Shown here piece by piece: positions 26,141-64,000 of a stretch of 64,000 nt of DNA (position 1 is the first letter of the stretch; every line of letters begins with the position of its first letter). The notes below the pieces were generated by a model, which was given only the letters and a program-made list of their open reading frames with translations, did not search any database and was not told the DNA's origin. The translations under genes were made by a program, and so were the position numbers. The stretch comes from Clostridiales bacterium. Its GTDB lineage: Bacteria; Bacillota; Clostridia; Lachnospirales; WRAX01. Location of the stretch: assembly GCA_031265685.1 (NCBI GenBank), contig JAISCI010000102.1, forward strand, positions 339-64,338, read 5' to 3'.

Positions 26141-26167
26141 ACCAATTCTCCTGTCTGTTAAAGCTCC

Positions 26168-26338
26168 GCGCCAATCTCCATTTAAGAATATAGAAAAGAT
26201 TTTCAAGTCCGCGCCTGAAGCAGGGTAATTTTCGCGTGATGAATTTTGCGCGGCTTACGCAAAATTCCATCACGCGAAAATGCGATCGAAACTCGTCCAT
26301 ACAAAAATTTACTTCCGCCAATCTAACGGAGATCAGTA
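26168..26338. repeat. family-A-like composite element with a long family-B hairpin (26227..26280)
   Basis: ccaatctccattt / gaaaagattttcaag / ... aattttcgcgtgatgaattttgcg cggctta cgcaaaattccatcacgcgaaaa ... / acggagatcagtat. It fills the whole gap between two Hsp70 genes. Confidence 0.8.
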
Positions 26339-27934
26339 TTACACCCGCGTCTTCTTCCCCCGCTGGGGCGTGAAGTTTCGCTTATAGCCGCCGCCGGCGT
26401 CCTCAACCATGCCGGAGACTACCCCGCCCTCCTCGGCGGCGGACAGCGTGATTCGCAGCCTTGTCCCGCCGCTGGGGCGCGGAGGAAGTCCCGTTACCTC
26501 TATGTCGCCGATCAGCCGGCAGTCCTCCACGGGATCGTCCCGGTTGATCCGCTCCAGAACGCGCAGATCGAAACGCGTCATGTCTTCGGGGCGGCTTCCG
26601 GAGAGCGTGAACACGGCGTCTTTGCGCGCCAGAGCGTAAGGCGTGCCGCGCCGGATCAGCGTATAGAAAACCTTTTTCGCGCCGTTTGTCACCTCCAGCC
26701 CGATGTCGTGCGGAACGCTGCCGGAGAACGCAACGGCGCGGCGCTCGGCGGAGAACTCCCGCCCGGCGAGAAGCCCCATCTTCATCGCCGCGTAGTACGC
26801 CGCGCCGACCGATATGTCCAGCGCGGGGCGCTCGGACTGATATATCTTCGATTCGTCGCCGAACACGCCGTTCAACATATCCCGCACCCAGGGCGCGGCC
26901 GACGATCCGCCCTCCAACAGCACGCGGCTGATGTCCCCGGGAGCCAGAGCGCCCTTGTACGCGCCGCGCAGCGCCTTTTGCGTAAGCTGACGCGTCTTCT
27001 CGATAAACGCCGCCGCCAGTCCCTCATAGCGCTCGCGCGTCAGGTTCTCGATAAACGGCGGTATCATAAACGTGAACGGCACGCGGAACGACTTCGCGCC
27101 CGAGAGCCGTTCCTTCGCCTCGCGCGCGCGGATCTCCACTTCGGCGCGGTTTTCCGGGACGATCGATTCGCGGGTCTGGCCGGTTTTCGCCTCTATCCAG
27201 TCGTAGCACTGTTCGGTAAGAATAGCGTCGAGCGCGTCTCCGCCGTGGGCCGCGTCTCCGCCCTCGGATATGACCGTCAGCCGCGTCAGTCCCGGCGGTT
27301 CCTCCGTCACGCTGAAAACGGTTATATCGAGCGTGCCGCCGCCGAAGTCGAACACCAGCACGCGCTCGCCGTCCTCAAGCTCGCGCTTGAAATTCATAGC
27401 GAGCGCGGCGGCCTTCGGCTCCTCGATCAGGCAGATCAGGCCGCCGCCCAGCCCCGCCAGCTCGCAGGCGCGGATTGTCGCCTTCTTCGCGGCGTCGTCG
27501 AACCCATAAGGCACTGATACGACCAGTCCGGCTATCTCGGCTTTCGGGTTTATCGCTCGCGCGCGCGACGCCAGTTCTTCCAATATCTTCGCGGATATTT
27601 CCTCCGGCGCGTAGTCCTTGCCGCCCAGCCGGAACGTCTTGTCCGTGCCCATATACCGCTTCGCCGAACGCACCGTGGAATCGGGGTACAGCTTTATCGA
27701 GCGGTAGGCCTCCTCGCCGACGACCCACTCGCCGCCGTCGCGCCACTGCACAACGGAAGGCAGCGGTATCTTGCCGAACCCGTCCGAAACGTCGATGGTT
27801 TCGGGCGCGCCGGACGACGGCGAATAATAACTGACGACGGAGTTGGTCGTGCCTAAGTCTATGCCGAGCACGAACCAGTCCTCGGGCAGGGACCCGCGCC
27901 GGTCTATATCTTTTTTGCAATCTTCCCACTTCAT
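26339..27934 (-). CDS. Hsp70-family ATPase, lidless paralogue
   Basis: 531 aa. LGIDLGTTNSVVSYY, VFDFGGGTLDITVF, LLEGGSSAAPWV. It ends just after the beta-sandwich SBD. Confidence 0.85.
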   Translation of the reverse strand: MKWEDCKKDIDRRGSLPEDWFVLGIDLGTTNSVVSYYSPSSGAPETIDVSDGFGKIPLPSVVQWRDGGEWVVGEEAYRSIKLYPDSTVRSAKRYMGTDKTFRLGGKDYAPEEISAKILEELASRARAINPKAEIAGLVVSVPYGFDDAAKKATIRACELAGLGGGLICLIEEPKAAALAMNFKRELEDGERVLVFDFGGGTLDITVFSVTEEPPGLTRLTVISEGGDAAHGGDALDAILTEQCYDWIEAKTGQTRESIVPENRAEVEIRAREAKERLSGAKSFRVPFTFMIPPFIENLTRERYEGLAAAFIEKTRQLTQKALRGAYKGALAPGDISRVLLEGGSSAAPWVRDMLNGVFGDESKIYQSERPALDISVGAAYYAAMKMGLLAGREFSAERRAVAFSGSVPHDIGLEVTNGAKKVFYTLIRRGTPYALARKDAVFTLSGSRPEDMTRFDLRVLERINRDDPVEDCRLIGDIEVTGLPPRPSGGTRLRITLSAAEEGGVVSGMVEDAGGGYKRNFTPQRGKKTRV

Positions 27935-27935
27935 A

Positions 27936-29381
27936 TTATATTGTCTCCAGTTTTACTTTTGTCCGCGCCGACCCGCCGGCGGACGGAAACTGCTCGCCGA
28001 ACCCGACGTCCCGGACGGCGACGTCCAGCGTGTCGGCCGCCGAAAAAGCCAGCGACACGCCAACGACAGTCGTCCCCGCGGGACGTCTCGGAAGGCCGGT
28101 CAGCGTCAGATCAGTCAGTTTCACGCCGTCCCGCCCGCCCGAATAAATCTCGACGACCGGCGGCGCGTCTGTCGGCTCGGTCAGCAGAAATGTTCCTTCC
28201 GGGAATTTATCCCACCAATACGCCCCTTCCGGCGCTATCGGGAAGAACCGCGCCGCGTTCCCCGCGCGCACGCGCACGCCCACTCCGCGAGAAAGGCGGT
28301 TAACGTCTCGCAGTTTCGGAAAGGCGGGCGCCAGACCCAGCCCAGCCGCCGCTATCAGACACGCACCCTCGGCCAGAGCGACGGCGGGAACCTTCGGGCA
28401 GATAAGCTCCGCGCGCGGGAACGCCTTTGCCGCGGCCGCCCTCGCGAACGGGTACTCAAACCCGCCGCCCATAAGACATACCGCCGAGACCGCGGCGCGC
28501 TCCCCCGCCGCCGTGACCGCCGCTCTGATCCCCTCGGCGAAAGGTTTTGTCACGGCACGGATATCGGCGTCGCGGGCGGTCATCGCGAAAGGCGGGTACG
28601 CGAAAGATACGTAGAGTTTCACGTCCTTGGCGGACTGCCTCCCCAGAAGCAGCCGCCGGTGCGAACGGCAGAACCGCTCAAGCTGACGGACGTCCCGCGC
28701 GGAAGGCTCCCCGGCGGACTTCTCGTATAGTCCGGCCACAAAAGAGTCGGCCGCCCTGCCCAGAGCGTCCGCACCCAGATCGGGGTACGACACGCTCGAC
28801 AGGCAATCCACAAACCCGCCGCGCCTCTCGTACAGCCCGACGCGAAACGCCCCGGCTCCGAAGTCCGCGATAATGGTCGGCTGGCCATCACGCCCCGCGA
28901 GCAGCCGGGCGGCTGCGCATTCCCGAGCGTCGCGTATGTCCGCGAGCGCGGAGCCGTATCCGGCGTGGACGAACGCCGCGCGAAGATCCTCGGCGGCGGC
29001 GGCCGGCCAATCGGCGGGGGACGCCGCCACTATCGCCTCGACGCCGGCTTTCGGATCCGCGCCTTTCACGAAAGCGATCATGTCGCGGATATATTCGCCG
29101 GTTATCTCGCGTATCGGCGTAGGGCGGCCCCCGGCGCTTGCGTACTCTCCCTTGCCCAGTCGCTCGGGAAGACGCGTAAAAACCGCGCCGTCTTCTCCGC
29201 CGGAGAGCGCGTATTCCCCGAACACCCATTCGCCGTTCGCGTATTCGACCACCGTCGGAGAGGACGGCACACCGTACCCTCCGGATATGTCCACCGCGGC
29301 GGCCTCGCCGCGGACGGCGTCGTAATACGCCACGGCGGATGAATCCGCTCCGATGTCGATCCCGAGAACGAACCCGCTCAT
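27936..29381 (-). CDS. Hsp70/actin-fold protein with degenerate nucleotide-binding motifs
   Basis: 481 aa and colinear with the neighbouring Hsp70s, but GIDIGADSSAVAYY replaces GTTNS, ADFGAGAFRVGLY replaces DFGGGTFD, and CLMGGGFEYPFA replaces the adenosine motif. Confidence 0.7.
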   Translation of the reverse strand: MSGFVLGIDIGADSSAVAYYDAVRGEAAAVDISGGYGVPSSPTVVEYANGEWVFGEYALSGGEDGAVFTRLPERLGKGEYASAGGRPTPIREITGEYIRDMIAFVKGADPKAGVEAIVAASPADWPAAAAEDLRAAFVHAGYGSALADIRDARECAAARLLAGRDGQPTIIADFGAGAFRVGLYERRGGFVDCLSSVSYPDLGADALGRAADSFVAGLYEKSAGEPSARDVRQLERFCRSHRRLLLGRQSAKDVKLYVSFAYPPFAMTARDADIRAVTKPFAEGIRAAVTAAGERAAVSAVCLMGGGFEYPFARAAAAKAFPRAELICPKVPAVALAEGACLIAAAGLGLAPAFPKLRDVNRLSRGVGVRVRAGNAARFFPIAPEGAYWWDKFPEGTFLLTEPTDAPPVVEIYSGGRDGVKLTDLTLTGLPRRPAGTTVVGVSLAFSAADTLDVAVRDVGFGEQFPSAGGSARTKVKLETI

Positions 29382-30169
29382 CTTGCCGCTATGACGTTCG
29401 CGCGGACCAGCGCCTTATCGCCCTCGCGCCAGCCGCGCCCGCATACCGCGATTATCTCGCCGCGCTTTCGCTCCGGGTGCGGCTCGGCGGCCAGCGCCAC
29501 GTGCCAGCGTCCGGAGAACATCTCTCCCGGCTGCGGCTCGACTGGGAATATACCCGCTTCGGCCAGCAGTCTCTCGATTCCAAGCGACGTGCCCGCGCAA
29601 AGGCCCGCTAGCTTCCGGGCGGCGGGATCGCCGGACTGCGCCAGGCGCGGAACGGAGTAGTACATCATCTCGTCGAAGGTGGACACCTCGAACAGCAGCG
29701 CGTCTTTCAGGAAAGCCGCGCGGGATTTTTCCGCCGCCGCGAGTACGCGCGCTCGCTCGGCAGCGCGTTTCTCACGGATCAGCTTCGCGGAGCGCCCGTC
29801 CGGCGAGGTTATGGGCGAAACGCCTTCCAGCGTCTTTTCGGAAGCTTCGCGCGCACCCTCGGCGGACTGGCGCAGACTGTCCGCCTTGATGGCTATGGCC
29901 TCCGCGACGCCCCGCGCGATTGTTTCGGTCTCGTTGGTGAATTCGGCGGACGACACGAAAGCCGAAACGCCGTCGAGCAGTTCCGCGAAAGCCAGCGCCA
30001 TGTCGGCGGGCTTCGCGAGCAATCGCGCCGCGTCGGCGAGCGTCCGGCGATAGTCCGCGTCCCAGCGGGAGAAGGCGGATTCCCTCGCGCGGAACCTGCG
30101 GGCTTCCTCCGCCGCGCGCCGGTTCTGGTAATGGAGTTTTAAGCGCTCATGTTTTTCTCTGGATGGCAT
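29378..30169 (-). CDS. GrpE-like nucleotide exchange factor
   Basis: I trimmed the track ORF to the ATG at 30169 (GAGGGA RBS), giving 263 aa. A long helical N-terminal part is followed by a C-terminus LLAEAGIFPVEPQPGEMFSGRWHVALAAE...GEIIAVCGRGWREGDKALVRANVIAAR, which follows the GrpE beta-domain pattern (G-x-x-x-I-x-x-x-G-x-x-FDP-x-x-H-x-A...G-Y...R-x-A-x-V). Confidence 0.6.
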   Translation of the reverse strand: MPSREKHERLKLHYQNRRAAEEARRFRARESAFSRWDADYRRTLADAARLLAKPADMALAFAELLDGVSAFVSSAEFTNETETIARGVAEAIAIKADSLRQSAEGAREASEKTLEGVSPITSPDGRSAKLIREKRAAERARVLAAAEKSRAAFLKDALLFEVSTFDEMMYYSVPRLAQSGDPAARKLAGLCAGTSLGIERLLAEAGIFPVEPQPGEMFSGRWHVALAAEPHPERKRGEIIAVCGRGWREGDKALVRANVIAAR

Positions 30170-30177
30170 TTTATCCC

Positions 30178-31860
30178 TCAATACAGATCGTCCACAGTCA
30201 GTTCCGTGACCAGCCCGCCCGCCGACAGCGATTCCGCCATGACGCGCAGCATGTTGTCCTGCCCGACACTGAACACGACGCGCACGCGCTCTTGCCCCTT
30301 CGGTCCCTGCGGTATCCCGCGGAGGCTCGTGCCCGAGAGCCGCTTCATGCCGTCGCGGTAGACGTAATCCGGCGAGCCGTCCGTCGCGGGCGCGGTGTTT
30401 TCGTATACGACTATCGCCATGCTGGACAGGTTGTCGAAACCGGTCGTCAGCGTCTCGGGGCATTCCACCGTGAGGCCCTCGGGCGGGATGTCCATGCCGG
30501 AATCCACTATTTTAAGGAATCGTCGCCCATGAAGCTCCAGCCCCAGCGGGTGAATCGTTCTCTCTTTGACCTTGACGATGGGTTCCGCTATGTCGGGCAT
30601 CATGATCATTTCGCAATAAACGGCCGCCCCGCGCGAGATAGAGAGGGCGGGGCTGACCTTGGACTTATACGGCGCCCTGCCGAACTTCTCCTCGACGCGA
30701 TTGGCCGCGAGCGGTATCGCCGAGCTTCCCCCGACGAGGAACACCTCGTCGATGTCCCCGGCGGAAAGCCCTGCCGCCTCGAGACATTTATCAACGCATG
30801 CCAGCGTGGAATCCACCATGTCCGACAGAGTCTTTCCCTCAAACTTCCCAAACGAAACGTCGTCCTGACCCAGGCGGTTGACGCGCGCGTGCGTCTCGAG
30901 CTGTTCGCGGGTTATTTCCATATTTATGCTGACGACGATTGGTTCCTGCAGGAACGGGCTGAGCGTGACCTTGGCGCTCTTCGCCTGACTGAGCCGTTCC
31001 TTGGCGACGTTCGCGGCCTGGCGCAGACGCGCCTGAGCCGTCTTTTTCTGACGCCTCGACACGCCGTCGTCCACTTGCTCGTCGAAGATGTCTATTTCGC
31101 CGTTTGTAAGGTTCTTGAACTCTTCGTAAATAATATCCATGACCAGCGCGTCCGCGTCGTCGCCGCCCAGCCGGTTGTCGCCGTAGGTGGACGCTACCGA
31201 GATGACCGGCTCGTCGCCGGGTTTCGCGTCTATATCGAGTATGCAGGCGTCGAACGTTCCGCCGCCAAAGTCGTATATGAGGACCTTCTTGGCGGAGGAT
31301 TCGCCGATGGCGTAGCTGATCGCGGCGGCGGCGGGTTCAAGCCGAAGATACACGCTGTCCTCGTCGAATCCGGCGAGCACGGCGGCCTCTTTCGTCACGC
31401 GCTTCTGCTTGTCCGTGGAATTGGCGGGCACGGTTATAACGCAGCCCGAAAACTCGCCCGGTATGCCCAGTTCTTCCCGCGCGTACTCGTCGGCTTTGCG
31501 CTTCAGGCAGCCGAGTATCTCCCCGGCGATCTGCGCCGGCGTGAAGGCGTGTTCCTCGCCGCCCGCCTCGACTACGATTTTTTCGTCCGAACCCAGCAGT
31601 CGCTTCACCGAAAGCACCGTGGACGCCGGGAATATCGCGGCGGCTTCCTTCGCTTCCGCGCCGAACACTCGGGAGAGCTTGCCCGGCTCGTCCGGGTCCG
31701 GCTCGAACTGAACCGCCGTCGGGAAGATATTGGCGCCGTCGATAGGGATAGTCTGCGCCTCCCCATCCTTAAAGTTAAATATGCTGACGACGGAGTTGGT
31801 TGTGCCGAAGTCCACGCCGAGATACAGCCCCCGCGCCGTGTCGAGACCGATTGTTCCCAT
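30178..31860 (-). CDS. Hsp70-family ATPase, lidless paralogue
   Basis: 560 aa. LGVDFGTTNSVVSIF, IYDFGGGTFDACIL, FLVGGSSAIPLA. It ends just after the beta-sandwich SBD. Confidence 0.85.
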   Translation of the reverse strand: MGTIGLDTARGLYLGVDFGTTNSVVSIFNFKDGEAQTIPIDGANIFPTAVQFEPDPDEPGKLSRVFGAEAKEAAAIFPASTVLSVKRLLGSDEKIVVEAGGEEHAFTPAQIAGEILGCLKRKADEYAREELGIPGEFSGCVITVPANSTDKQKRVTKEAAVLAGFDEDSVYLRLEPAAAAISYAIGESSAKKVLIYDFGGGTFDACILDIDAKPGDEPVISVASTYGDNRLGGDDADALVMDIIYEEFKNLTNGEIDIFDEQVDDGVSRRQKKTAQARLRQAANVAKERLSQAKSAKVTLSPFLQEPIVVSINMEITREQLETHARVNRLGQDDVSFGKFEGKTLSDMVDSTLACVDKCLEAAGLSAGDIDEVFLVGGSSAIPLAANRVEEKFGRAPYKSKVSPALSISRGAAVYCEMIMMPDIAEPIVKVKERTIHPLGLELHGRRFLKIVDSGMDIPPEGLTVECPETLTTGFDNLSSMAIVVYENTAPATDGSPDYVYRDGMKRLSGTSLRGIPQGPKGQERVRVVFSVGQDNMLRVMAESLSAGGLVTELTVDDLY

Positions 31861-31872
31861 AATTTATCCTCC

Positions 31873-34800
31873 TTAGAGTAGTATCGCCCTGGCCCGCGGG
31901 ACAGGCGAGAGAGCCTTTTCGGCGGAGCGTTCGGCAAGCTCCTCCCGCCCGCGCGCGAGATGAACCGCGGCGTCGTTGACGGCCTGCCAGCCGCCCTCGC
32001 CAAGCCCAAGCTCCGCCTTCGCGACGGCAAGCGTCCGGCTGGCGGTCTCGGTTTCCCCGCCCGCACCGCGCTCGACGAACCGATACCTGATCCTGTCGCC
32101 GTGGAACGCGCGGATATTCGCGGCATACACGCCGAAGCGGACGTATTTCGCCGGGACGCCGCGTTCGGGGCCGCCCGCCGAATACACCAGGGAGACGTTC
32201 CTCCCGCGCCGCCCTCTGTGCTCAAGCGGCTGGTTTTCCTCTATATACGGCGTCCGCGCGGATTTGTCTTTGATCGTTTCCAGTGCCGGCGGGATAACGC
32301 CCAGTTTTTCGGCAGTGGCCGCCGCGCGCGCGACGACCTCGCCGGACGGCTTGACACCTCTGGCGTATACCGCGCAGAGAGCGAAAACGGTCGTATCTTC
32401 CGGATCCGCCCCGGACAGGCAAAGGCCCTCCAGCGCCGCTACCGCTTCCAGCGCGGGTTCCAGACCGTCAAGCTCAATCCCCCTGCACAGCGCCGCCGCG
32501 TATGCCCGGACATGAGCCGATTTCGCCGCCCGCGGCGCTTCCCGCGCGAACGCCGCCTGAGCCGCCCCGGACATATCACGCGTCAGCGCCGCCGAATCCA
32601 GTATCTCCCTGTCGAGCGCGGCGGAGCCGCCGCCAGCGCGGATCGCGGCCTCGGCCAGCCGAGCCATGTCCGCGACACTGCCCGCGCTGCCGGCGGCGGC
32701 TTTCGCCACGCCCGCGTCATACCATCCGCCCAGCGTCAGCTCGCGGCAGACCGGCCCTATCACGGCGCGATCCGCCGCCGACCCCGACCCGGCGACAGCT
32801 CTCGCCGCCGCGAACTTCGTCTCGTCGTCAATCGCCGGAGATTTGGACGCGAGCAGCTTCGCGAGGCGCTCCATGTCGCCCGCCGCCGCCAGCGCCGCGG
32901 CTATAGGCGCCGCGAACACCGCCGGAACGCTTCTCGCGTCCGTCCCGGCGTATCTCTCCGCCGCTTCCGCCGTCAGTCCCGTTTTGGCGAGCAAGCCCGC
33001 CGCCGCCGCCGAAACCGCCCGCAACAGTTCGGGCGAGAGCGAGGGTTCTCGCAGAGCTTTCGTCAGCATCGACAGTTTATTGGCGGCCGATATGCCGCGC
33101 GTCCGGGGATCGTCGTCTATGATCCCCTTGGAGAGCGCCGCGAGCAGTCTCGGCGACGGGTTGCCGTCCAGAAAAAACCGCGTGTACAGACGTATCCCAG
33201 CGTTCTCGATCATGCGGACAGCCGTGAATCCGCCGCCGGCGGCCGCGCCCGCGCCGTCCAGAAACGCCGCCGAAAACCCGTGCCCCGCGGCTTCCGCGAC
33301 ACATGACGTGCCCGAGAAGGAGTAGTTTTCGGGAGCCGCCATCAGCGGGTCAAATACGCGAACCTGCCGAGCGGACTGATCCGCCGGCGACAGGCGGAAG
33401 CGGAACAGGTTGTCGCGCACAAGCCGTTCGGCCTTCTTATACAGCGGCGACGACCTGTCCGCGACGTCGAGGTAGAACGCGTACGCGCTCAGGAAGTATC
33501 GTCCCGTTTCGCCCGCCGTCAGCGACCGCTCGGCGAATTCCGCGATCCGGCGCGTCAGCGGGCCGACCGCCTGCTGGTTCTCGGGGCGGGTCAGCATCAG
33601 ATGGAACACGAAAGCGTCGTCCGCTCCCTCGGCGTACTCGCGCAGGGCGGCTGGCGGTACGTCCGGAACGGCCCGCCGCCGCGCCGACGTTATGACGGCG
33701 GCCGAAAGACCGGGTATGCTCAGGCCGGCGTTCAGCGCCGTGACATAATACCGGTAGGCCCGCTCGGAATAATCCGCCCGCGTGAGCGCCGACGAGCACA
33801 GCGCCGCCAGCAGCGACCGCTCCGGATACCGCCGGTAGACGCTGTCGGCGGCGGCCGGAGTCATGCGCGCCGCTATCGCCGCGCCATACATTCGGACGGC
33901 CCTCGAAATGTCCCGCCCCTTGGCCGCGCCCCACGCGACGGCTCCGAGAAAGAGCGAACGTCCCGGCGCGCCCGATATGTCCGTGTCCGGATCGGCGGCG
34001 CAAAGACAGTCGCACGCGCAATCAAGGAGCCGCCTCGAACGCTCCCCCAGCGCGAACGCTTCCGCGAGCGCCGCGAAGCCGCGAGCCGCGCCAAACGCCG
34101 TGAACGCCGCCATTCCCGCGTATGACGATTCGGACGAGCGAGCGAGCCGCCCCGCCTCGCGCCGCGCGGTGAACATCGAACCGCCGTCGGCCGCCGCGCG
34201 GCACCGCAGATATACGTACCGCGCCCATTCCTCCGGCGCCGTCTTTCTAAGCCGCCGGTCGCGCTTCGCGGCGGATTTGAGCTGCAGCCGGGCGCTCTCA
34301 AGTAGCCCGGCGGATATGTCGCGTTCTATCGTGTCGAGCGTGTCGGGCGGGATCGGGCTTTTGAGCTTAATCGACACGGCGACGCGCGTTACCCCAGCCG
34401 GGGTGATCAGATCGACGGCAGCTTCGGCCTCGGTCGTCTTACGCCCAAGTTCCGGCGCGACGGTGAACGGTATGCCCGCCTTGTCCGCGATGAGGTATCG
34501 CCGCGCCGAGAACCTCGTGAGCCGGTCCCTCGGCGCCGCCTCGACGAGCATGTCGCGGCGCGTCGAGTTGACGACGATTATCGAGCCGGATTCGCCGGGC
34601 GCGTATGTCTCGCGGTCCGTCCGCGCGGAGAGCGACCGGCGCCGCGCCGCCATGATCGTAACGCCCGAGCCGTCCGACAGATTGACGCGGGCGGCGGCGA
34701 AGCGCGATTTAAGCAGCCCGGGATATATGATGAAGCGTTTTTCGGCAAAGCCGTCTTTCGAGAAATCCGACGGCGAGACGACCGGTTCCAGCAACTTGAG

Positions 34801-35412
34801 CCACGGCGCGTCCGCGGTCAGCTTATCCGACGCGACGCCCCAGCCATTGAGACGCAACGGAATAACCCCAGTCGCCGAATCGGTCTCACCGGGATTGAAC
34901 TCGAAACGCAGCAGCCGTTCCGTGGGCGCGACGGCGGCGCGTTCCTTAAACCCCGACGTCACAAGGAAGCTGTCCAGTCCCTCGGCGCCGCCCCGCCGGA
35001 ACCGCTCGTACAGATCCATATGCCTGAAACCAATCTTTTGCAGCCACTCGCGGAACGTTTCCGCGCCGAACACCCTGGCAGCCCCGGCAAAGTCCGACCG
35101 GGCGTAATCGGCGAACTCGCCGACGGAACGGCAGCGCGTACCAGTCAAGACCGCGGAAGGGTCCCCCAAGACGCGCACGCGGCCCTCGCCGCCGCTCGTG
35201 ATCAGCGACACCGAAGCGGTCTCCGCCCCGGAACCGCCCCGATACGTCACGGCGACGCGGCAGTCTCCGTCGAACTCCGCCGGGGAGACGGTTATCCCGG
35301 GCGAATCGGCGGCGATCCCGCCAAACAACCGCCCTGTTCCGGCGTTTGTGATAGAAAAGAAGGCGGTGTCGCCCGCCCCTGACAGCCTGACTTCGCGGAG
35401 AGACAGCCGCAA
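31873..35412 (-). CDS. 1179-aa protein of unrecognised family (three N-terminal beta-rich modules plus ~800 aa Ala-rich helical region)
   Basis: Continuous ORF with coding-like composition. The track start is TTG at 35412. The frame stays open 19 more codons upstream (TTEAEYERVIDVLEDGKPE) with no canonical start codon. No HPD/J-domain, Walker or other motif is recognisable. Confidence 0.7.
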   Translation of the reverse strand: MRLSLREVRLSGAGDTAFFSITNAGTGRLFGGIAADSPGITVSPAEFDGDCRVAVTYRGGSGAETASVSLITSGGEGRVRVLGDPSAVLTGTRCRSVGEFADYARSDFAGAARVFGAETFREWLQKIGFRHMDLYERFRRGGAEGLDSFLVTSGFKERAAVAPTERLLRFEFNPGETDSATGVIPLRLNGWGVASDKLTADAPWLKLLEPVVSPSDFSKDGFAEKRFIIYPGLLKSRFAAARVNLSDGSGVTIMAARRRSLSARTDRETYAPGESGSIIVVNSTRRDMLVEAAPRDRLTRFSARRYLIADKAGIPFTVAPELGRKTTEAEAAVDLITPAGVTRVAVSIKLKSPIPPDTLDTIERDISAGLLESARLQLKSAAKRDRRLRKTAPEEWARYVYLRCRAAADGGSMFTARREAGRLARSSESSYAGMAAFTAFGAARGFAALAEAFALGERSRRLLDCACDCLCAADPDTDISGAPGRSLFLGAVAWGAAKGRDISRAVRMYGAAIAARMTPAAADSVYRRYPERSLLAALCSSALTRADYSERAYRYYVTALNAGLSIPGLSAAVITSARRRAVPDVPPAALREYAEGADDAFVFHLMLTRPENQQAVGPLTRRIAEFAERSLTAGETGRYFLSAYAFYLDVADRSSPLYKKAERLVRDNLFRFRLSPADQSARQVRVFDPLMAAPENYSFSGTSCVAEAAGHGFSAAFLDGAGAAAGGGFTAVRMIENAGIRLYTRFFLDGNPSPRLLAALSKGIIDDDPRTRGISAANKLSMLTKALREPSLSPELLRAVSAAAAGLLAKTGLTAEAAERYAGTDARSVPAVFAAPIAAALAAAGDMERLAKLLASKSPAIDDETKFAAARAVAGSGSAADRAVIGPVCRELTLGGWYDAGVAKAAAGSAGSVADMARLAEAAIRAGGGSAALDREILDSAALTRDMSGAAQAAFAREAPRAAKSAHVRAYAAALCRGIELDGLEPALEAVAALEGLCLSGADPEDTTVFALCAVYARGVKPSGEVVARAAATAEKLGVIPPALETIKDKSARTPYIEENQPLEHRGRRGRNVSLVYSAGGPERGVPAKYVRFGVYAANIRAFHGDRIRYRFVERGAGGETETASRTLAVAKAELGLGEGGWQAVNDAAVHLARGREELAERSAEKALSPVPRARAILL

Positions 35413-38496: not shown

Positions 38497-38636
38497 ACTA
38501 ATCTCCACACCAAAGGATACCGAATATTTTTTCGATCCGCGACTGATAAGTTTGCGTGGTTCATGCAAACTTCAGAAGCCGCGCGGATGCGCAAGCTCGA
38601 AAAAATATTCGGCACAAATCTAAGTGGAATTAGTAT
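38495..38636. repeat. family-A palindromic element with an internal AAGTTTGC-N9-GCAAACTT hairpin (38548..38572)
   Basis: atactaatctccac / ccgaatattttttcga / core / tcgaaaaaatattcgg / aagtggaattagtat. It fits exactly between the stop of 38639..40885 and the trmK ATG. Confidence 0.85.
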
Positions 38637-59333: not shown

Positions 59334-59407
59334 CTGGGTGTAGCGTAGTTTGGTAGCGCGCCAGAATGGGGTTCTGGAGGTCGCAGGTTCAAATCCTGTT
59401 ACCCAGA
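59334..59407 (+). tRNA. tRNA-Pro (anticodon GGG)
   Basis: Hand-folded cloverleaf. Acceptor CTGGGTG/TACCCAG, D arm GCGT..GCGC, anticodon stem CCAGA/TCTGG with loop ATGGGGT, T arm GCAGG-TTCAAAT-CCTGT. CCA is not encoded. Confidence 0.9.
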
Positions 59408-59425
59408 TTTTGGTTTTGCGGTTTT

Positions 59426-59499
59426 GGCGGAATAGCTCAGCTGGCTAGAGCATGCGGTTCATACCCGCAGTGTCGGGGGTTCGATTCCCTCTTCCGCTA
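59426..59499 (+). tRNA. tRNA-Met (anticodon CAT; elongator type by anticodon stem, Ile2 not excluded)
   Basis: Acceptor GGCGGAA/TTCCGCT, D arm GCTC-AGCTGGCTA-GAGC, anticodon stem TGCGG/CCGCA with loop TTCATAC, T arm GGGGG-TTCGATT-CCCTC. Confidence 0.85.
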
Positions 59500-59513
59500 T
59501 GTTTCATATGTTT

Positions 59514-59585
59514 TGGGCTGTCGCCAAGCGGTAAGGCAATGGACTCTGACTCCATCATTCGAAGGTTCGAATCCTTCCAGCCTAG
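59514..59585 (+). tRNA. tRNA-Gln (anticodon CTG)
   Basis: Acceptor TGGGCTG/CAGCCTA (U1-A72, as in Gln tRNAs), GCCAAGCGGTAAGGCA D arm, anticodon stem ATGGA/TCCAT with loop CTCTGAC, T arm GAAGG-TTCGAAT-CCTTC. Confidence 0.9.
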
Positions 59586-60280
59586 TAAACCTTTGGAATC
59601 GTTAATGATTGAAAATCAATTAACATCGCCCGCCCCATTTTCAAGGTTCGCTTAATGTATTGCTCGTTGAATTTCCGTAACTCATTATAACTGCGCTCCG
59701 CCACCCTCTGTTTACAGTTTGCCTGATCACGGCGCTTTGTTTGGCTCGCGGATTTTTCAATTATAAAATGACTTTTAGTTCGCTTGTGAACCGCGCAACG
59801 GGTTTAATATCAGACCGCGCAAAAACTCCCAAAGCCATAGCAAAAGCCTTCGAAATATGGTACAATTAAAGCAACGCAAACGATTGCGGAGGCGACGACC
59901 ATGCCATACAAACAGGGCGAAAGCCGAAACCAACTGACGCTGACCCCAATATGTCTTGACGACTATATCGGAGAGGACAGCATATGCCGCGTGATCGCGG
60001 CGTACGTGGGCAGCCTTGACATGTCGGCCCTTGGTTTCAAATACGCGGAGACGAAAGACACAGGCCGCCCGCCGCACGACCCGGCGTCGATGCTCGCGCT
60101 GTATCTGTACGGCTACCTAAACCGCGTCCACTCGTCGAGGCGGCTTGAAGCGCAAACTCGCCGCAACGTCGAAGTCATGTGGCTGATGGAGAAGCTGACC
60201 CCGGACGACAAAACGATCTGCAACTTCCGCAGGGACAACGCCGCCGCGCTGAAAGGCGTGTTCCGGCAGTTCAGCTTGAA

Positions 60281-60307
60281 GAATTTTGCTTGAACCACGC
60301 AAAATTC
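60281..60307. repeat. 27-nt family-B hairpin, copy 1 in the transposase
   Basis: gaattttgc ttgaaccac gcaaaattc. Its internal TGA ends ORF 59901..60293, and the frame shifts by +1 across it. Confidence 0.9.
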
Positions 60308-60486
60308 CATGGTGCAATCGGCAAGGTTTGTACGGCAAAGAGCTTGTGGCGGTTGACGGCACGAAAATCCGCGCAAGCAGTTCCCGCCGGAACATTCACA
60401 CGCAAAAGGGCACGGAAAAGGAGCTTGCATCCGTCGAGAAGAAAATCAGCGAATATCTGAGCGAGTTGGAGTCGAACGACGCATAT

Positions 60487-60513
60487 GAATTTTGCGTGAA
60501 CCAAGCAAAATTC
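60487..60513. repeat. 27-nt family-B hairpin, copy 2 in the transposase
   Basis: gaattttgc gtgaaccaa gcaaaattc. It starts on a codon boundary and is read through as EFCVNQAKF. Confidence 0.9.
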
Positions 60514-60668
60514 CTTACCGAAGCCGGCGACGCGAGGCTCGACGCTGCTGCGCTCCATGAAGCGTTAAAACGTCTGCAAGAGAAAAAGGACAAGCTTGCA
60601 GATTGGCTGACCCGGATTGAGGCGAACGGCGGCGCGGAGATTTCGACCGTCGACCCGGACGCCCAAGT

Positions 60669-60695
60669 GAATTTTGCTTGGTACACGCAAAATTC
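60669..60695. repeat. 27-nt family-B hairpin, copy 3 in the transposase
   Basis: gaattttgc ttggtacac gcaaaattc. It is read through in frame as NFAWYTQNS. Confidence 0.9.
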
Positions 60696-60817
60696 CTTTA
60701 TGCACTCCGGCGGCGACGCGCGTCCGCTCGACGCTTGTTACAGCGTGCAGGCCGTTGCGGACGCGAAGCACAAGCTGATCGTTGATTTCGACGTTTCAAC
60801 ATGTCCCGAAGACAAAG

Positions 60818-60844
60818 GAATTTTGCTTGAACCACGCAAAATTC
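60818..60844. repeat. 27-nt family-B hairpin, copy 4 in the transposase
   Basis: gaattttgc ttgaaccac gcaaaattc, identical to copy 1. It is followed by ataag, and the transposase continues in another frame from ~60849. Confidence 0.9.
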
Positions 60845-61599
60845 ATAAGGGGCGTTGCGTCAAATGACGCAAGCCGCGAAAGAGATTATGGGCGTCGAGA
60901 CAATCTCCGTCGTCGCAGACAAAGGTTACTACGACGCGACCGATATCTCAAACTGCGAGCAATCCGGCACAACCTGTTATGTGGCGGTTGTTGACAGCTA
61001 TTCCCACGCGCCCGATCCTAGATATGACCGCAAAAATTTCAGATACGACGCCGAAAATGACTGCTATATATGCCCCGACGGGCAAATATTACCATTCAAC
61101 AGACTTCAAAAGCGCGAAGACGGCGGCGCTGACAGACGTTACCAGAACAGAAGAATTTGTAAAAACTGTGCAAACAGAGAAAAATGCACCATTAATAAAG
61201 CCGGACGGATTATCAGCCGCAACCCGAACCAAGGCGGTCTTGATACGATGAACGCCCGAATGAAAACCGAAGCGGGCAGGGAAATTTTCCGCCAGCGCAA
61301 GAAAATTATAGAACATCCGTTCGGAACGACCAAAGCGGTTTGGGGTTTCAAACAGTTTCTCTGCCGAACGCGGGAGAAAGTGACCGGCGAACAGTCGCTG
61401 GCCTTCTTGGCGTATAATTTTCGGCGGGTCTTTAGCATTTTCAGGCAAAACGGTAAGAGCATGGCGGCGGCAGTGCTGTGATAAACGCCGCTTTTTGTTT
61501 TTTTGCCGCAAAGGCTGACCAATAAAAGGAAATTACGGCGCTCCGCCTGATTTCCCAGTGCGCGCTGCCGCCCTATAAGGCGGCTTTTTGCGCGGTCTG

Positions 61600-61982
61600 T
61601 CTTGGACGACGTCTGGAAGGCGCTTGGCCGGTACGCGCGTGATGTCCGCCTTGAGGGTCTGGCGGGTCTTGTCGAGGGCGGTTCCAATGGAGACACGATA
61701 GCAGGGGCAGTCCGATTCCGCGGATTTCTAAGCCGCGCAGCGTGAACTCCGCGCCGTCGTCTATCGGTGTGCGAGGATTTCCTCAACGATGGCTGTGATT
61801 TCAGGCGCGGTCAGCGTCTGTCCCTTTATGGTTGCGTCCATGTCCATAGTGCCGCGGGTGTCGATGCCGACCATCGCCGAGATGAGCATACCGACCTTGA
61901 GGATGCGGGCGGCCGATTTTTCGCTTGACGTATACACGTATAAGTAAAAACATTCAAAGTCACCATATCGAGGTGTTAGCAT
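61600..61982 (-). pseudogene. gene debris abutting the IS right end (unidentified)
   Basis: Coding-looking minus-strand peptides lie in three frames: ...GIDTRGTMDMDATIKGQTLTAPEITAIVEEILAH / TPIDDGAEFTLRGLEIRG / CPCYRVSIGTALDKTRQTLKADITRVPAKRLPDVVQD. The last runs straight into the IS terminal repeat. Confidence 0.3.
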
Positions 61983-62121
61983 AAATTGATATTAAGATTA
62001 TGGAATGATCCTTGGTCTTGTCTGAAAACTCTTACGACTGCCCCGCGGTATTCTATCGCGCAAGCCGGCCGAAAGCGGTTTTAAGACGAGACCTAAACAG
62101 CGAAGGTGAGGAGAGTTAACT

Positions 62122-62820
62122 ATGTCAATGCCCACCATTTCCCTTTCTGACATAAGCTCGGATATTGTCAGAAATAATATCGCCGCTTCTATCGCGCTGC
62201 AGGAAGCGGCGCTTGCCCATATCCTGAACGCGGAGGGCGAGAAATTACAGGCGGTTATCGCAATAGAAGACGTAACCATCGAGCAGCTTACGCAAGTCAA
62301 CACATCCGTCGTTGATCTGATGGAGCACGCGGCGTCTTTTGAATTGGCGCTGCAGGAAAAACTGCAGCACGTTTTTCCCTCCGCCAGGCCGGTGGAGCCT
62401 ATTATGGTTATGGCGGTTGGTACTAAGTCGTTATTCGGCGGATCTCCGGCCGGAGGCGTCGTGGCGTTTCGCGAAAGCTTGTATGCTTATGGTTCCGCTG
62501 TTTCACACGCGGCGGATACGGTAGATTTTATAATCAACGAAGATGGTAATTACCGGATTAACTATCAATCGGTGATATCCAACGAAGCGTTGTCTCCGGG
62601 GCAACCTATAAACGAAGATCTCTCTCTTACCTCGGGCAGGTACGGCATTTTAGCGACAAATACCATTACGATAAACACTACGTTTGTACAGAATAGCACG
62701 ATTGCATCCTTGCCCGCGGGAGACGTACTGCGCTTGAGTCTTGTGGATAATAGTGGATCCCTCGAAATATCAGCGATCGCATCCGCAATATCAATCGAAA
62801 AAGTGAACTTAGTATTGTAA
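62122..62820 (+). CDS. hypothetical protein with an N-terminal SIALQEAALAHILNAEGEKLQ helix; possible spore-surface (BclA/BxpB C-terminal-like) protein
   Basis: 232 aa with a GGTGAGGAGAG RBS. The C-terminal half alternates short beta-strand-like segments (GNYRINYQSVI, GDVLRLSLVDN, AISIEKV), reminiscent of C1q/TNF-like exosporium domains. The functional call is a recollection, not a search result. Confidence 0.55.
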   Translation: MSMPTISLSDISSDIVRNNIAASIALQEAALAHILNAEGEKLQAVIAIEDVTIEQLTQVNTSVVDLMEHAASFELALQEKLQHVFPSARPVEPIMVMAVGTKSLFGGSPAGGVVAFRESLYAYGSAVSHAADTVDFIINEDGNYRINYQSVISNEALSPGQPINEDLSLTSGRYGILATNTITINTTFVQNSTIASLPAGDVLRLSLVDNSGSLEISAIASAISIEKVNLVL

Positions 62821-62830
62821 AATGGCGCTG

Positions 62831-62995
62831 ATACTGTTTCAGAAGTAAGGTTGATATTTGTTTTGTAAGATTCGCGCTAAGGTAATTTCGCATCGCATTT
62901 TCGCTTGAACGAATTTTGCCTAAAGCCGCAAAATTCTGTCACGTGAAAATTACCTTCTTATAAAACAAATGTCACTATCTAACCTGAAACAGTAT
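62831..62995. repeat. composite nested palindrome (ATACTGTTTCAG termini) with a family-B hairpin 62911..62936
   Basis: atactgtttcag ... taaggtaatttcgc ... attttcgcttgaac gaattttgcc taaagcc gcaaaattc tgtcacgtgaaaat tacctt ... ctgaaacagtat. Confidence 0.8.
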
Positions 62996-63232
62996 GAAGA
63001 CCAACAGGAAACAGCCGGCAATAGACTTTCCGTACACCCCCTGACGGGAACTGTGCGGGAAGTCTAATAACAGCGGTGACTGCCGAGGGCTTTTCGCGCG
63101 CGGCAAGGAAGCTCGCTCCGCGTAATCGCGAATACTTTACGCAAGCAGAGTCCGTTAGACCTGTTCCGAAATCTATTAGTTATGTCAATCAGGTTTTGAT
63201 AAAATAATTTGAATGAGGGGCTTCGTCCCCCC

Positions 63233-63394
63233 AGGGCGTGTTTGAAAACTAGCCCCGGCAGATTCGCGAGATGATTTTTCGATAATCAAAAAACTAAAAG
63301 TAGACGCTCAGCAACGCTACGCTAGACTTTTAGTGACACAGAGCAGCGGAAAATCAGCCGCGAAAATGTCGCGCCTAGTTTTCAAACACGCCCT
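63233..63394. repeat. composite nested palindrome with 20-bp perfect termini
   Basis: agggcgtgtttgaaaactag ... actaaaagt ... acttttagt ... ctagttttcaaacacgccct. There are inner arms gatttttcg/cggaaaatc. CCCCAGGG occurs on both flanks. Confidence 0.8.
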
Positions 63395-63441
63395 AAGTTC
63401 CCCAGGGCTGTTCAATAAGACCATAAATGGAGGAACGATAT

Positions 63442-63942
63442 ATGGCTAATAATGATTATCAGGATTATAACTATAACGCCGCCGCCAATCACGGCATAAA
63501 AGCATACAATCAGAGCGGGATTCCGCTGCCGCCATGTTCCAATCCGGTTGGAGACGACGGGCAATACGCGGATTACAGGTATTATTGCTGGTGTAAAAAA
63601 CGCGGCTGCCCTCACCATCAGAAAAATGAAAGATGTCCATACGATCATTGTCAGGAGAGCGGCAAAGAGATATCAGTTGACCGCGCAAAAGAAAACGACG
63701 TCCGGTCCTGCTGCGCGGATATCATCGCAAGCATAGCTCTGACAGAAACGTCTATAGCTTATATTCTAAACGCGGAGGGTGAAAAGATTCAAAAGATACT
63801 TGAAATATCATGTTGTCCGAACAAAATTTTAGAAGTCAACTGTAACGTAAAGGAAACCCTTTGCACAGCTACACGGCTGGAAGAGCTGTTGTGCAAAAAG
63901 CTGGAAATTGTAGCGGAACTGTTAAAATACGTTCGTTGTTAG
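63442..63942 (+). CDS. Cys-rich hypothetical protein sharing the SIAL-x-E-x-x-(L/I)A-x-ILNAEGEK(L/I)Q motif
   Basis: The track ORF starts at 63427, but its GGAGGA overlaps that ATG, so the ATG at 63442 is better placed. 166 aa with 14 Cys, including CWC, CPHH, CPYDHC, SCC, SCCP and CNVKETLC. The motif reads ASIALTETSIAYILNAEGEKIQ. Confidence 0.6.
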   Translation: MANNDYQDYNYNAAANHGIKAYNQSGIPLPPCSNPVGDDGQYADYRYYCWCKKRGCPHHQKNERCPYDHCQESGKEISVDRAKENDVRSCCADIIASIALTETSIAYILNAEGEKIQKILEISCCPNKILEVNCNVKETLCTATRLEELLCKKLEIVAELLKYVRC

Positions 63943-64000
63943 GAGGAATGCGCGTCCTGTAAGCGCTAAACTAAAAACTAGGCCCAAAAACTCGGTAATA

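Follow-up and report, generated by a model that had tools for sequence, protein, structure and literature searches.

The proteins to which those considered here are most akin build A-ENA, an endospore appendage of Bacillus thuringiensis sv. israelensis (Bti) characterised structurally and genetically by Sleutel, Sogues & Remaut (Nat Commun 2026; PMC13111695). Its subunit has 101 amino acids (aa), an alpha-helical hairpin being preceded by a 13-residue N-terminal lock, and the hairpins stack to give a two-start cross-alpha fibre in which five kinds of intermolecular isopeptide bond (IPB) form autocatalytically: IPB1 joins the N-terminus at G2 to Q44 with E41 as catalyst, IPB2 K42 to N64 (catalyst E39), IPB3 K84 to E29 (catalyst E28), IPB4 K77 to E78, and IPB5, which is inter-protofibril, K76 to Q82 (catalyst E86). 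On its own the Bti subunit self-assembles in E. coli, its fibres withstand boiling sodium dodecyl sulfate, and the a-ena promoter has a SigK site, with a reporter being on only in sporulating cells; fusions of A-ENA to C1q and other passenger domains were also reported, those with A-ENA, collagen and C1q parts being proposed to dock onto the fibres via their A-ENA moiety (all PMC13111695). Here we consider two neighbouring genes, gene 1 and gene 2, at the end of a contig whose source NCBI labels 'Clostridiales bacterium', with the locus-tag prefix LBK41 ('the window' below is the whole stretch of 64,000 nucleotides (nt) that was analysed). Both products are homologues of the A-ENA endospore-appendage subunit and new, somewhat unusual, members of its family.

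What the pair shares with A-ENA/A-ENA1 of Bti (Q8KNV8/Q8KNV7; 9ihh) is the homologous hairpin, the acceptor and catalyst of IPB1, the IPB2 triad and the donor and acceptor of IPB3, and in the case of gene 1 also the N-terminal lock, MxMPTI, and a SigK-like upstream motif. However, Bti A-ENA is a Cys-free single-domain protein encoded on a toxin plasmid, whereas the window proteins carry either a head or a Cys-rich extension and come from a high-GC Clostridiales metagenome-assembled genome (MAG) with no toxin genes nearby. We think it probable that the products of the pair belong to the spore surface and are of A-ENA type, assembling by way of the hairpins and then being joined by isopeptide bonds, one of them bringing a BclA-like head and the other acting as its Cys-rich partner or anchor. 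A link to the spore surface had been drawn in a first-pass annotation of this DNA, and the homology of both proteins to A-ENA, together with the BclA fold of the C-terminal domain of gene 1, supports it.

That annotation started from a motif common to the two open reading frames (ORFs). The peptides it quoted are all present, the gene 1 product having NNIAASIALQEAALAHILNAEGEKLQAVI close to its N-terminus and the gene 2 product containing CWCKKRGCPHHQKNERCPYDHC, IASIALTETSIAYILNAEGEKIQKIL and SCCPNKILEVNCNVKETLC, and in a six-frame scan of the window no other ORF has the motif. The likeness extends beyond these 25 aa to ~80 alignable aa with 38% identity (BLASTP E=4e-11), which makes it a matter of homology and not of chance. 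Searching the PDB with phmmer, residues 1-84 of gene 1 matched 9ihh, 'Ex vivo spore-silk A-ENA fibers' (E=1.5e-12), and so did gene 2 (E=5.4e-6, residues 98-166 of its 171-aa ORF). PF26595 (A_ENA) is precomputed in a large protein database on P0001 and P0024, the gene 1 and gene 2 proteins there, and on every relative; since the local Pfam and NCBIfam libraries were without an A_ENA model, the family was assigned via that annotation and the PDB search. The motif forms the centre of this A_ENA domain, in the first helix of an alpha-helical hairpin, and it belongs to a domain of known, spore-fibre, function.

Its earlier interpretation as a common oligomerisation or anchoring module fits with the A-ENA homology, but the suggestion that it defines an undescribed family does not survive: there is a named Pfam entry, and structure, chemistry and fusions to C1q and other domains are already in the literature (PMC13111695). 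Nor is it a trimerisation-type helix; the hairpin stacks into cross-alpha fibres locked by isopeptide bonds and the motif is the catalytic, crosslinking core. A BclA/BxpB-like C-terminal domain in gene 1 and the Cys richness of gene 2 are what could still be said for an undescribed family of BclA/BxpB/CdeC-type exosporium or coat proteins built on a trimerising or anchoring helix, and with a named family, a solved structure, a hairpin suited to cross-alpha stacks and not to a trimeric coiled coil, and no CdeC similarity in the Cys-rich part, we regard that version as very improbable.

The evidence for a crosslinking core comes from an alignment (A1) in which the two window proteins were set beside 13 relatives and the sequence of 9ihh. 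Its invariant columns, in gene 1 numbering, are S23, E28, N36-A37-E38-G39-E40-K41, Q43, N60 and K80, and they include the acceptor and donor of IPB3, the catalyst, donor and acceptor of IPB2 and the catalyst and acceptor of IPB1 as given in Table 1 of PMC13111695; 'ILNAEGEK.Q' is thus where the crosslinking residues are concentrated. A larger set of 158 relatives was chosen for having the NAEGEK core and conservation was judged in it at positions outside that core: Q44, N64, K84 and E29 (A-ENA numbering) are near-invariant, while no conservation is seen at K77, K76, Q82, E86 or the catalyst E28. Residue by residue, the IPB2 triad is K41/N60/E38 in gene 1 and K115/N133/E112 in gene 2 (166-aa numbering), the IPB1 acceptor and catalyst are Q43/E40 and Q117/E114, and the IPB3 donor and acceptor K80/E28 and K153/E102, respectively; the IPB1 and IPB2 columns are invariant in all of the alignments A1, A2 and A5. 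With the bond-forming residues kept in gene 1, covalent docking of its product to A-ENA subunits would be expected.

The other participant in IPB1 is the N-terminus, and here gene 1 starts with MSMPTISLSDISS, which matches the A-ENA lock GMPTIPEGLDIT. Among relatives of N-terminal type (alignment A2), M1 and P4 never vary and S2 and I6 hardly do, and by analogy with A-ENA the residue-2 amine would be the IPB1 donor. The JGI call of gene 1 (P0001; window 62122-62127) starts at Met3 to give 230 aa, dropping the conserved MSMPTI. In view of the match to the lock and of the invariance of M1 and P4, that start is probably a start-codon mis-annotation truncating the lock, and the position of the ribosome-binding site (RBS; Table 1) also supports ATG 62122 over it.

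Beyond its hairpin, gene 1 has what the first-pass annotation described as a jelly-roll-like tail of BclA/C1q/TNF kind, and three kinds of evidence agree with that description. The Pfam profile BclA_C (PF18573.7) matches residues 112-228 over profile positions 17-127 of 128 with E=3.3e-7 and a score of 30.7 bits, which is below the curated cut-off of 38 (PF18573.8 is precomputed on P0001 and P0002). An AlphaFold2 (AF2) prediction from a 22-sequence alignment, with a mean predicted local distance difference test score (pLDDT) of 77, gives the hairpin helices pLDDT values of ~75-80, then a low-confidence linker, and then an all-beta domain, residues 95-228, with pLDDT 54-65 over 95-120 and 72-94 from about residue 120. 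Foldseek comparison of this head with the PDB retrieves BclA (1wck, 2z5w, 3twi; template modelling score, TM, 0.77-0.79), F-BclA (9h38; TM 0.67-0.76), BxpB/ExsFA (8d02, 7r5i; TM 0.65-0.70) and also C1q and TNF ligands, at E values of 1e-8 to 1e-6, the best TM values (0.75-0.79) being normalised to the target. The very top match of gene 1 comes from a cyanophage, its portal-tail complex, and the CBD of a cyanophage tail fibre and the spike protein of a phage also rank high. Phage origin, brought up by the TNF-like fold and the island setting, was considered as the leading explanation and rejected, a search of PHROGs having yielded nothing significant (best E=0.03) and the pair having no phage genes near it; BclA, F-BclA and BxpB score essentially equal to the phage matches.

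BclA, F-BclA/L-BclA and BxpB/ExsFA of the Bacillus cereus group (1wck, 9h38, 8d02, 7r5i) have the same TNF/C1q-like jelly-roll as the gene 1 head (TM 0.65-0.79), and they are found in the spore's outermost nap or at appendage tips, where they make spore-spore or spore-host contact (F-ENA paper, PMC12357932). The differences are that the head has only 15-19% identity to BclA/BxpB, that its BclA_C score falls short of the cut-off, and that its attachment would be by an A-ENA hairpin, whereas that group uses the BclA N-terminal domain, a collagen stalk or an ExsF anchor. In the 'A-BclA' fusions of PMC13111695, proposed to form fibre-tip 'ruffles', an N-terminal A-ENA part is followed, as in gene 1, by a C1q/BclA-type jelly-roll; however, they have a collagen-like GXY stalk and gene 1 has none. 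Its residues 85-116 (FPSARPVEPIMVMAVGTKSLFGGSPAGGVVAF...) contain no GXY repeats and no match to Pfam Collagen, and the hairpin is joined straight to the head by a linker of ~10-30 residues (non-collagen, residues 85-94). Relatives that do carry GXY repeats are P0017, P0026 and P0027, P0017 being an example of the A-BclA type.

The partner is of a different character. The ORF containing gene 2 is 63427..63942 (+), 171 aa, and its start is likely to be ATG 63442, 7 nt past GGAGGA, giving the 166-aa product that is also the NCBI/JGI call P0024. It is as extremely Cys-rich as first noticed, with 14 Cys among the 166 aa (8.4%). AF2, with a 43-sequence alignment, predicts no regular structure in the extension (pLDDT 46-63 for residues 1-80 and 74 for 81-90) and a hairpin of helices 87-122 and 126-163 with pLDDT 97-98, the best Foldseek match of which in the PDB is 9ihh_A (TM 0.75, root-mean-square deviation 2.4 A). 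Neither gene 2 as a whole nor its N-terminal 93 aa has a Pfam or NCBIfam match at E<=0.1-1, and its database relatives are all matched through the A_ENA part. A CdeC-type relationship had been proposed for the Cys-rich protein; similarity of CdeC or CotY/ExsY type was looked for in Pfam and NCBIfam and not found, the N-terminal half being without any match there, so that the proposal has no support from homology.

The hairpin itself, where aligned to A-ENA residues 15-88, contains seven of the Cys (90, 91, 124, 125, 134, 141 and 151), the most among all 158 relatives, with C166 just past it at the C-terminus. About 12 proteins of 100-170 aa share three Cys positions with gene 2, so constituting a small subfamily: one is in the hairpin loop ('S.CP') and two are at A-ENA positions 18 and 82, of which position 82 ('LC.KL') is that of the IPB5 acceptor. 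Across the 158 relatives, a sample biased to gene 2 kin, hairpins behind an intact MxMP N-terminus have a mean of 0.47 Cys and those without one 1.5-2.0. Might gene 2 then be a doubly crosslinked A-ENA variant, in which disulfides replace both the N-terminal lock and the inter-protofibril isopeptide bond, and which with the stalk-less head of gene 1 makes a minimal two-gene spore 'nap' module, horizontally mobile among gut Clostridia? This we offer as a tentative proposal, less likely than not to be right; the candidate Cys would be those of the N-terminal connector, those of the conserved positions 18, 82 and loop, and an extra helix-2 stripe in gene 2, C134/C141/C151. A C(18)-C(82) disulfide within a single molecule was considered as well. 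An analogy is at hand. The subunits of S-ENA and L-ENA (Ena1A/B, Ena3A; DUF3992) are said, from work of Pradhan et al. 2021, to have a beta jelly-roll fold and Cys-containing N-terminal connectors. Disulfide bond densities of S-ENA and L-ENA are cited by the A-ENA paper (PMC13111695). Those subunits are not homologous to gene 2, beta jelly-roll versus alpha hairpin, and the analogy is confined to a flexible Cys-rich N-terminal extension locking by disulfides, which in gene 2 is hypothetical. In its main text PMC13111695, which lists its passenger-domain classes in the supplement, has no stalk-less A-ENA-C1q fusion, no C-terminal A_ENA behind a Cys-rich extension and no hairpin Cys, and the words cysteine and disulfide have zero occurrences in the paper; its '4Fe-4S' passenger class may be Cys-rich N-terminal fusions.

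How general is the pairing? The full-length gene 1 architecture is confined to four 90%-identity clusters among 5.8 billion proteins, in a search of proteins sharing exact words with the query. One of these relatives, P0003 from a Peptococcaceae MAG (GCA_031289735.1; locus L001), is followed 10 nt downstream by a gene for a 134-aa Cys-containing A_ENA protein, the closest kind of gene 2 relative; the recurrence of the same pair at that spacing makes it a conserved unit, and suggests a functional one. That gene 2 retains the acceptor and catalyst of IPB1 without having a lock of its own, while gene 1 does have a lock, is, together with this operon-like arrangement, the main argument for co-assembly. 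Both facts have to be set against the alternative that the two products do not co-assemble, each making a homopolymer of its own or having partners encoded elsewhere; gene 2 would then be a fibre subunit that stands alone and is locked by Cys, and gene 1 the tip of a fibre whose major subunit is encoded on another contig. Close gene 2 relatives do occur without other A_ENA genes nearby (L081, L082), a single-domain A_ENA gene of ~90-100 aa is present in most scanned loci, with or without fusions, and the Bti subunit needs no partner to assemble; nevertheless, with the A_ENA-BclA_C-like gene and the small Cys-containing A_ENA gene so closely joined in L001, we consider this alternative unlikely.

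An exhaustive search with gene 2 gave 599 representative clusters at 50% identity. With a profile the number, counted at 90% identity, was at least 2,469, and every one of those listed is unnamed or 'hypothetical' and bears PF26595. A genome scan confirmed at least 475 A_ENA loci, all of them in Bacillota, with Oscillospiraceae, Lachnospiraceae, Erysipelotrichaceae, Caloramator, Clostridium, Paenibacillus and others among the hosts. From the scan 80 loci were fetched (two of them the same contig), 35 of which have 2-4 A_ENA genes, and a common type of cluster places a 90-100-aa single-domain gene beside proteins that have A_ENA at the C-terminus and are either long or very rich in Cys. Examples recur in MAGs of Oscillospiraceae and Clostridia (L015 6001-10598; L067 102-6195; L074 89-6219; L042 1927-3524; L079 2262-6532; L016 4799-6276), their members being the ~90-100-aa single-domain gene, a 340-470-aa protein with 29-65 Cys and a C-terminal A_ENA, and often a protein of ~1,050 or ~560 aa ending in A_ENA. 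The N-terminal parts of the Cys-rich A_ENA proteins of L015, L042 and L079 and of four further Cys-rich relatives have no Pfam match. Two loci have sporulation regulators for neighbours: in L081 (1985-3837) a Spo0A gene (Response_reg + Spo0A_C) is upstream of the gene 2 relative P0178 with a small DUF6514 gene between, and in L083 (259-3639) a cluster of four A_ENA genes has a SpoIIID gene ~200 nt downstream. Such neighbours of gene 2 relatives, and the restriction of the family to Bacillota in the genome scan, support a spore connection.

Promoters for SigK have the form AC-N16/17-CATAnnnTA, and a motif upstream of gene 1 fits it. ACCAT-N13/14-CATANNNTG has a single match in the window as against 0.01 expected, and two orthologues, the one in L001 and the 60%-identical one in L085, also have it upstream, with N14. 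A similar sequence, CACC...TGTTACATATAATA, has been described as the SigK site of Bti a-ena (PMC13111695). From this consensus match we infer a candidate SigK-type promoter. A generic scan for sigma-70 promoters and terminators yielded nothing informative. Directly upstream of gene 2 there is no such motif; a SigK-like -10 there (CATAaatGG at 63422) was discarded, since the RBS overlaps with it and AC is missing at -35. In gene 1 the 5' leader (window 62000-62100) has an insertion of ~78 nt relative to L085 700-735, between the promoter-like block and the RBS (alignment A4).

If the components are what they seem, events might run as follows. Expression would take place in the mother cell, late in sporulation, from the SigK-type promoter, the host thus being taken to sporulate; on the spore or around it, the two products would co-assemble with the A-ENA hairpins as contacts and be fixed there by K-N, K-E and N-terminus-to-Q isopeptide bonds. 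Gene 2 would provide the polymerising or anchoring subunit, possibly disulfide-linked as well, to itself or to Cys-rich spore layers, and gene 1 would display its BclA-like head as an outer adhesive surface. What the analysis itself shows is homology, predicted folds, retention of the bond-forming residues, synteny of the pair and a promoter-like motif; assembly, bonding, the sharing of roles, timing and sporulation of the host are extrapolated from these.

The features on which these considerations are based are collected in Table 1.

Table 1. Features of the gene pair and of its surroundings (window coordinates)
Feature	Position	Strand	Details and evidence
Three tRNA genes	59334-59585	+	start of low-GC island
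Broken IS1182-like transposase	59901-61481	+	start of low-GC island
SigK-like promoter motif	61962..61988	+	ACCAT-N13-CATAaatTG (AC-N16-CATAnnnT), ~135 nt upstream of gene 1
Gene 1 RBS	62105..62113	+	GGTGAGGAG; direct sequence reading
Gene 1	62122..62820	+	232-aa A_ENA + BclA_C-like fusion, collagen-less 'A-BclA'; precomputed PF26595 + PF18573, PDB match, AF2, Foldseek
A_ENA domain of gene 1	62122..62373	+	residues 1-84, helices 13-47 and 53-84; phmmer, AF2
N-terminal lock of gene 1	62125..62160	+	SMPTISLSDISS; aligns with GMPTIPEGLDIT of A-ENA
BclA/C1q/TNF-like jelly-roll of gene 1	62404..62805	+	residues ~95-228; BclA_C match, AF2, Foldseek
Composite hairpin element 1	62849..62976		minimum free energy (MFE) -43.4 kcal/mol, z=-6.2; absent from L001 pair
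Composite hairpin element 2	63233..63394		36-nt arms, nested inner palindromes; MFE -87.4 kcal/mol (63205-63420), z=-8.2
Gene 2 RBS	63429-63434	+	GGAGGA
Gene 2	63442..63942	+	166-aa Cys-rich protein, C-terminal A_ENA; precomputed PF26595, PDB match, AF2, Foldseek
Tyr/Asn/Cys/His-rich N-terminal extension of gene 2	63442..63699	+	residues 1-86, 6 Cys, CxC-x4-C-x-HH-x5-C-x3-HC
A_ENA hairpin of gene 2	63700..63930	+	residues 87-163, no N-terminal lock; phmmer, AF2, Foldseek

The spacer between the genes, 62821-63441 (621 nt), does contain the two composite palindromes that had been pointed out, and in the light of the adjacent genes of L001 it is probably a secondary insertion of hairpin elements. 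Rfam recognises no family in it, nor elsewhere in the window except for the three tRNAs, and no T-run follows either hairpin, so that the hairpins are probably inserted elements and not terminators. Element 1 holds an N8-spaced copy (62910-62936) of a dispersed palindrome, GAATTTTGC-N-GCAAAATTC. Besides that copy, the 27-nt form with N9 has 7 matches in the window as against 0.05 expected (60281-60307, 60487-60513, 60669-60695, 60818-60844, 26241-26267, 1084-1110 and 38547-38573). Four exact-core copies are within the IS1182-like transposase gene at or near its reading-frame breaks, this insertion sequence (IS) gene being split into three ORFs (59901-60293, 60286-60867 and 60855-61481). The palindrome looks like a repetitive extragenic palindrome (REP)-like or miniature inverted-repeat transposable element (MITE)-like hairpin repeat that invaded the IS.

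The gene pair is within a low-GC terminal island, 59334-64000 (GC 0.45-0.54). The GC of the pair is 45-49%, and at third codon positions it is 0.54 for gene 1 and 0.47 for gene 2 versus 0.71-0.80 in host genes, which suggests that the island was horizontally acquired or, less likely, that the contig is a chimeric join. Among the larger ORFs elsewhere in the window, 38 were scanned with Pfam, giving amino-acid biosynthesis, tRNA synthetases, cell-wall and transport functions and an Hsp70-like/VWA/DUF5716-5717 cluster. In that cluster (24071-35412, - strand) are three Hsp70-like genes, one of them VWA-fused, and DUF5716/DUF5717 proteins, including a DUF5717 protein of 1,179 aa.

Several observations weigh against the pair being isopeptide-linked spore-surface components in this host. 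The catalyst of IPB3/4, A-ENA E28, is not kept, gene 1 having Q27 and gene 2 T101 instead, at a position that varies across the family (E/Q/V/I/M/T). The residues for IPB4 and IPB5 are missing from both proteins, A-ENA K76/K77 corresponding to S72/F73 in gene 1 and R145/L146 in gene 2, E86 to Q82 in gene 1, and Q82 to C151 in gene 2, though they are absent from most relatives too (A-ENA K77 is L in 138 of the 158), and so look Bti-specific and not family-defining. Gene 2 is without an N-terminal lock, an unrelated extension of ~86 aa preceding its hairpin, and the spacer with its two large hairpins parts genes that are adjacent in the orthologous locus. Neither the window nor L001 has a gene for a single-domain A_ENA 'major subunit', which means that a long fibre is not assured and that a short nap-like structure may be what is formed. 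There is also the matter of the host: the island is at a MAG contig end beside tRNA genes and an IS, making both host assignment and expression in that host uncertain, the scanned ORFs of the 64-kb window include no recognisable sporulation gene, and some family matches are from genera commonly taken to be non-sporulating, for instance Faecalibacterium MAGs.

These last points, along with the cyanophage portal-tail match and the occurrence of TNF-like jelly-rolls in phage tail fibres, would suit a function for the pair here unrelated to spores, as cargo of a mobile island; the pair might make a fibre for the surface of vegetative cells or for a biofilm matrix, or be a receptor-binding module taken from a phage. 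Yet the sole characterised member of the family is spore-specific, the SigK-like motif is conserved, relatives of gene 2 stand beside Spo0A and SpoIIID, and, as noted, the phage comparisons favour no such origin; we think a non-spore role distinctly unlikely, and retain isopeptide-linked components of the spore surface as the probable nature of the pair.

For the present the outcome is the correct annotation of two 'hypothetical proteins' and not the discovery of a new system. Its setting is a family characterised only in Bacillus thuringiensis. To this our survey adds relatives in the thousands from anaerobic Clostridia of the gut, as yet uncharacterised and frequently clustered, a small subunit being accompanied by fusion proteins that are Cys-rich or very large. 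The window pair is a compact example, a stalk-less BclA-like head together with a lock-less, cysteine-laden subunit. If their co-assembly is true, it would show how Clostridia mount spore-surface adhesins covalently, and would add a second, redox-sensitive, locking of very stable fibres that have interest as biomaterials.

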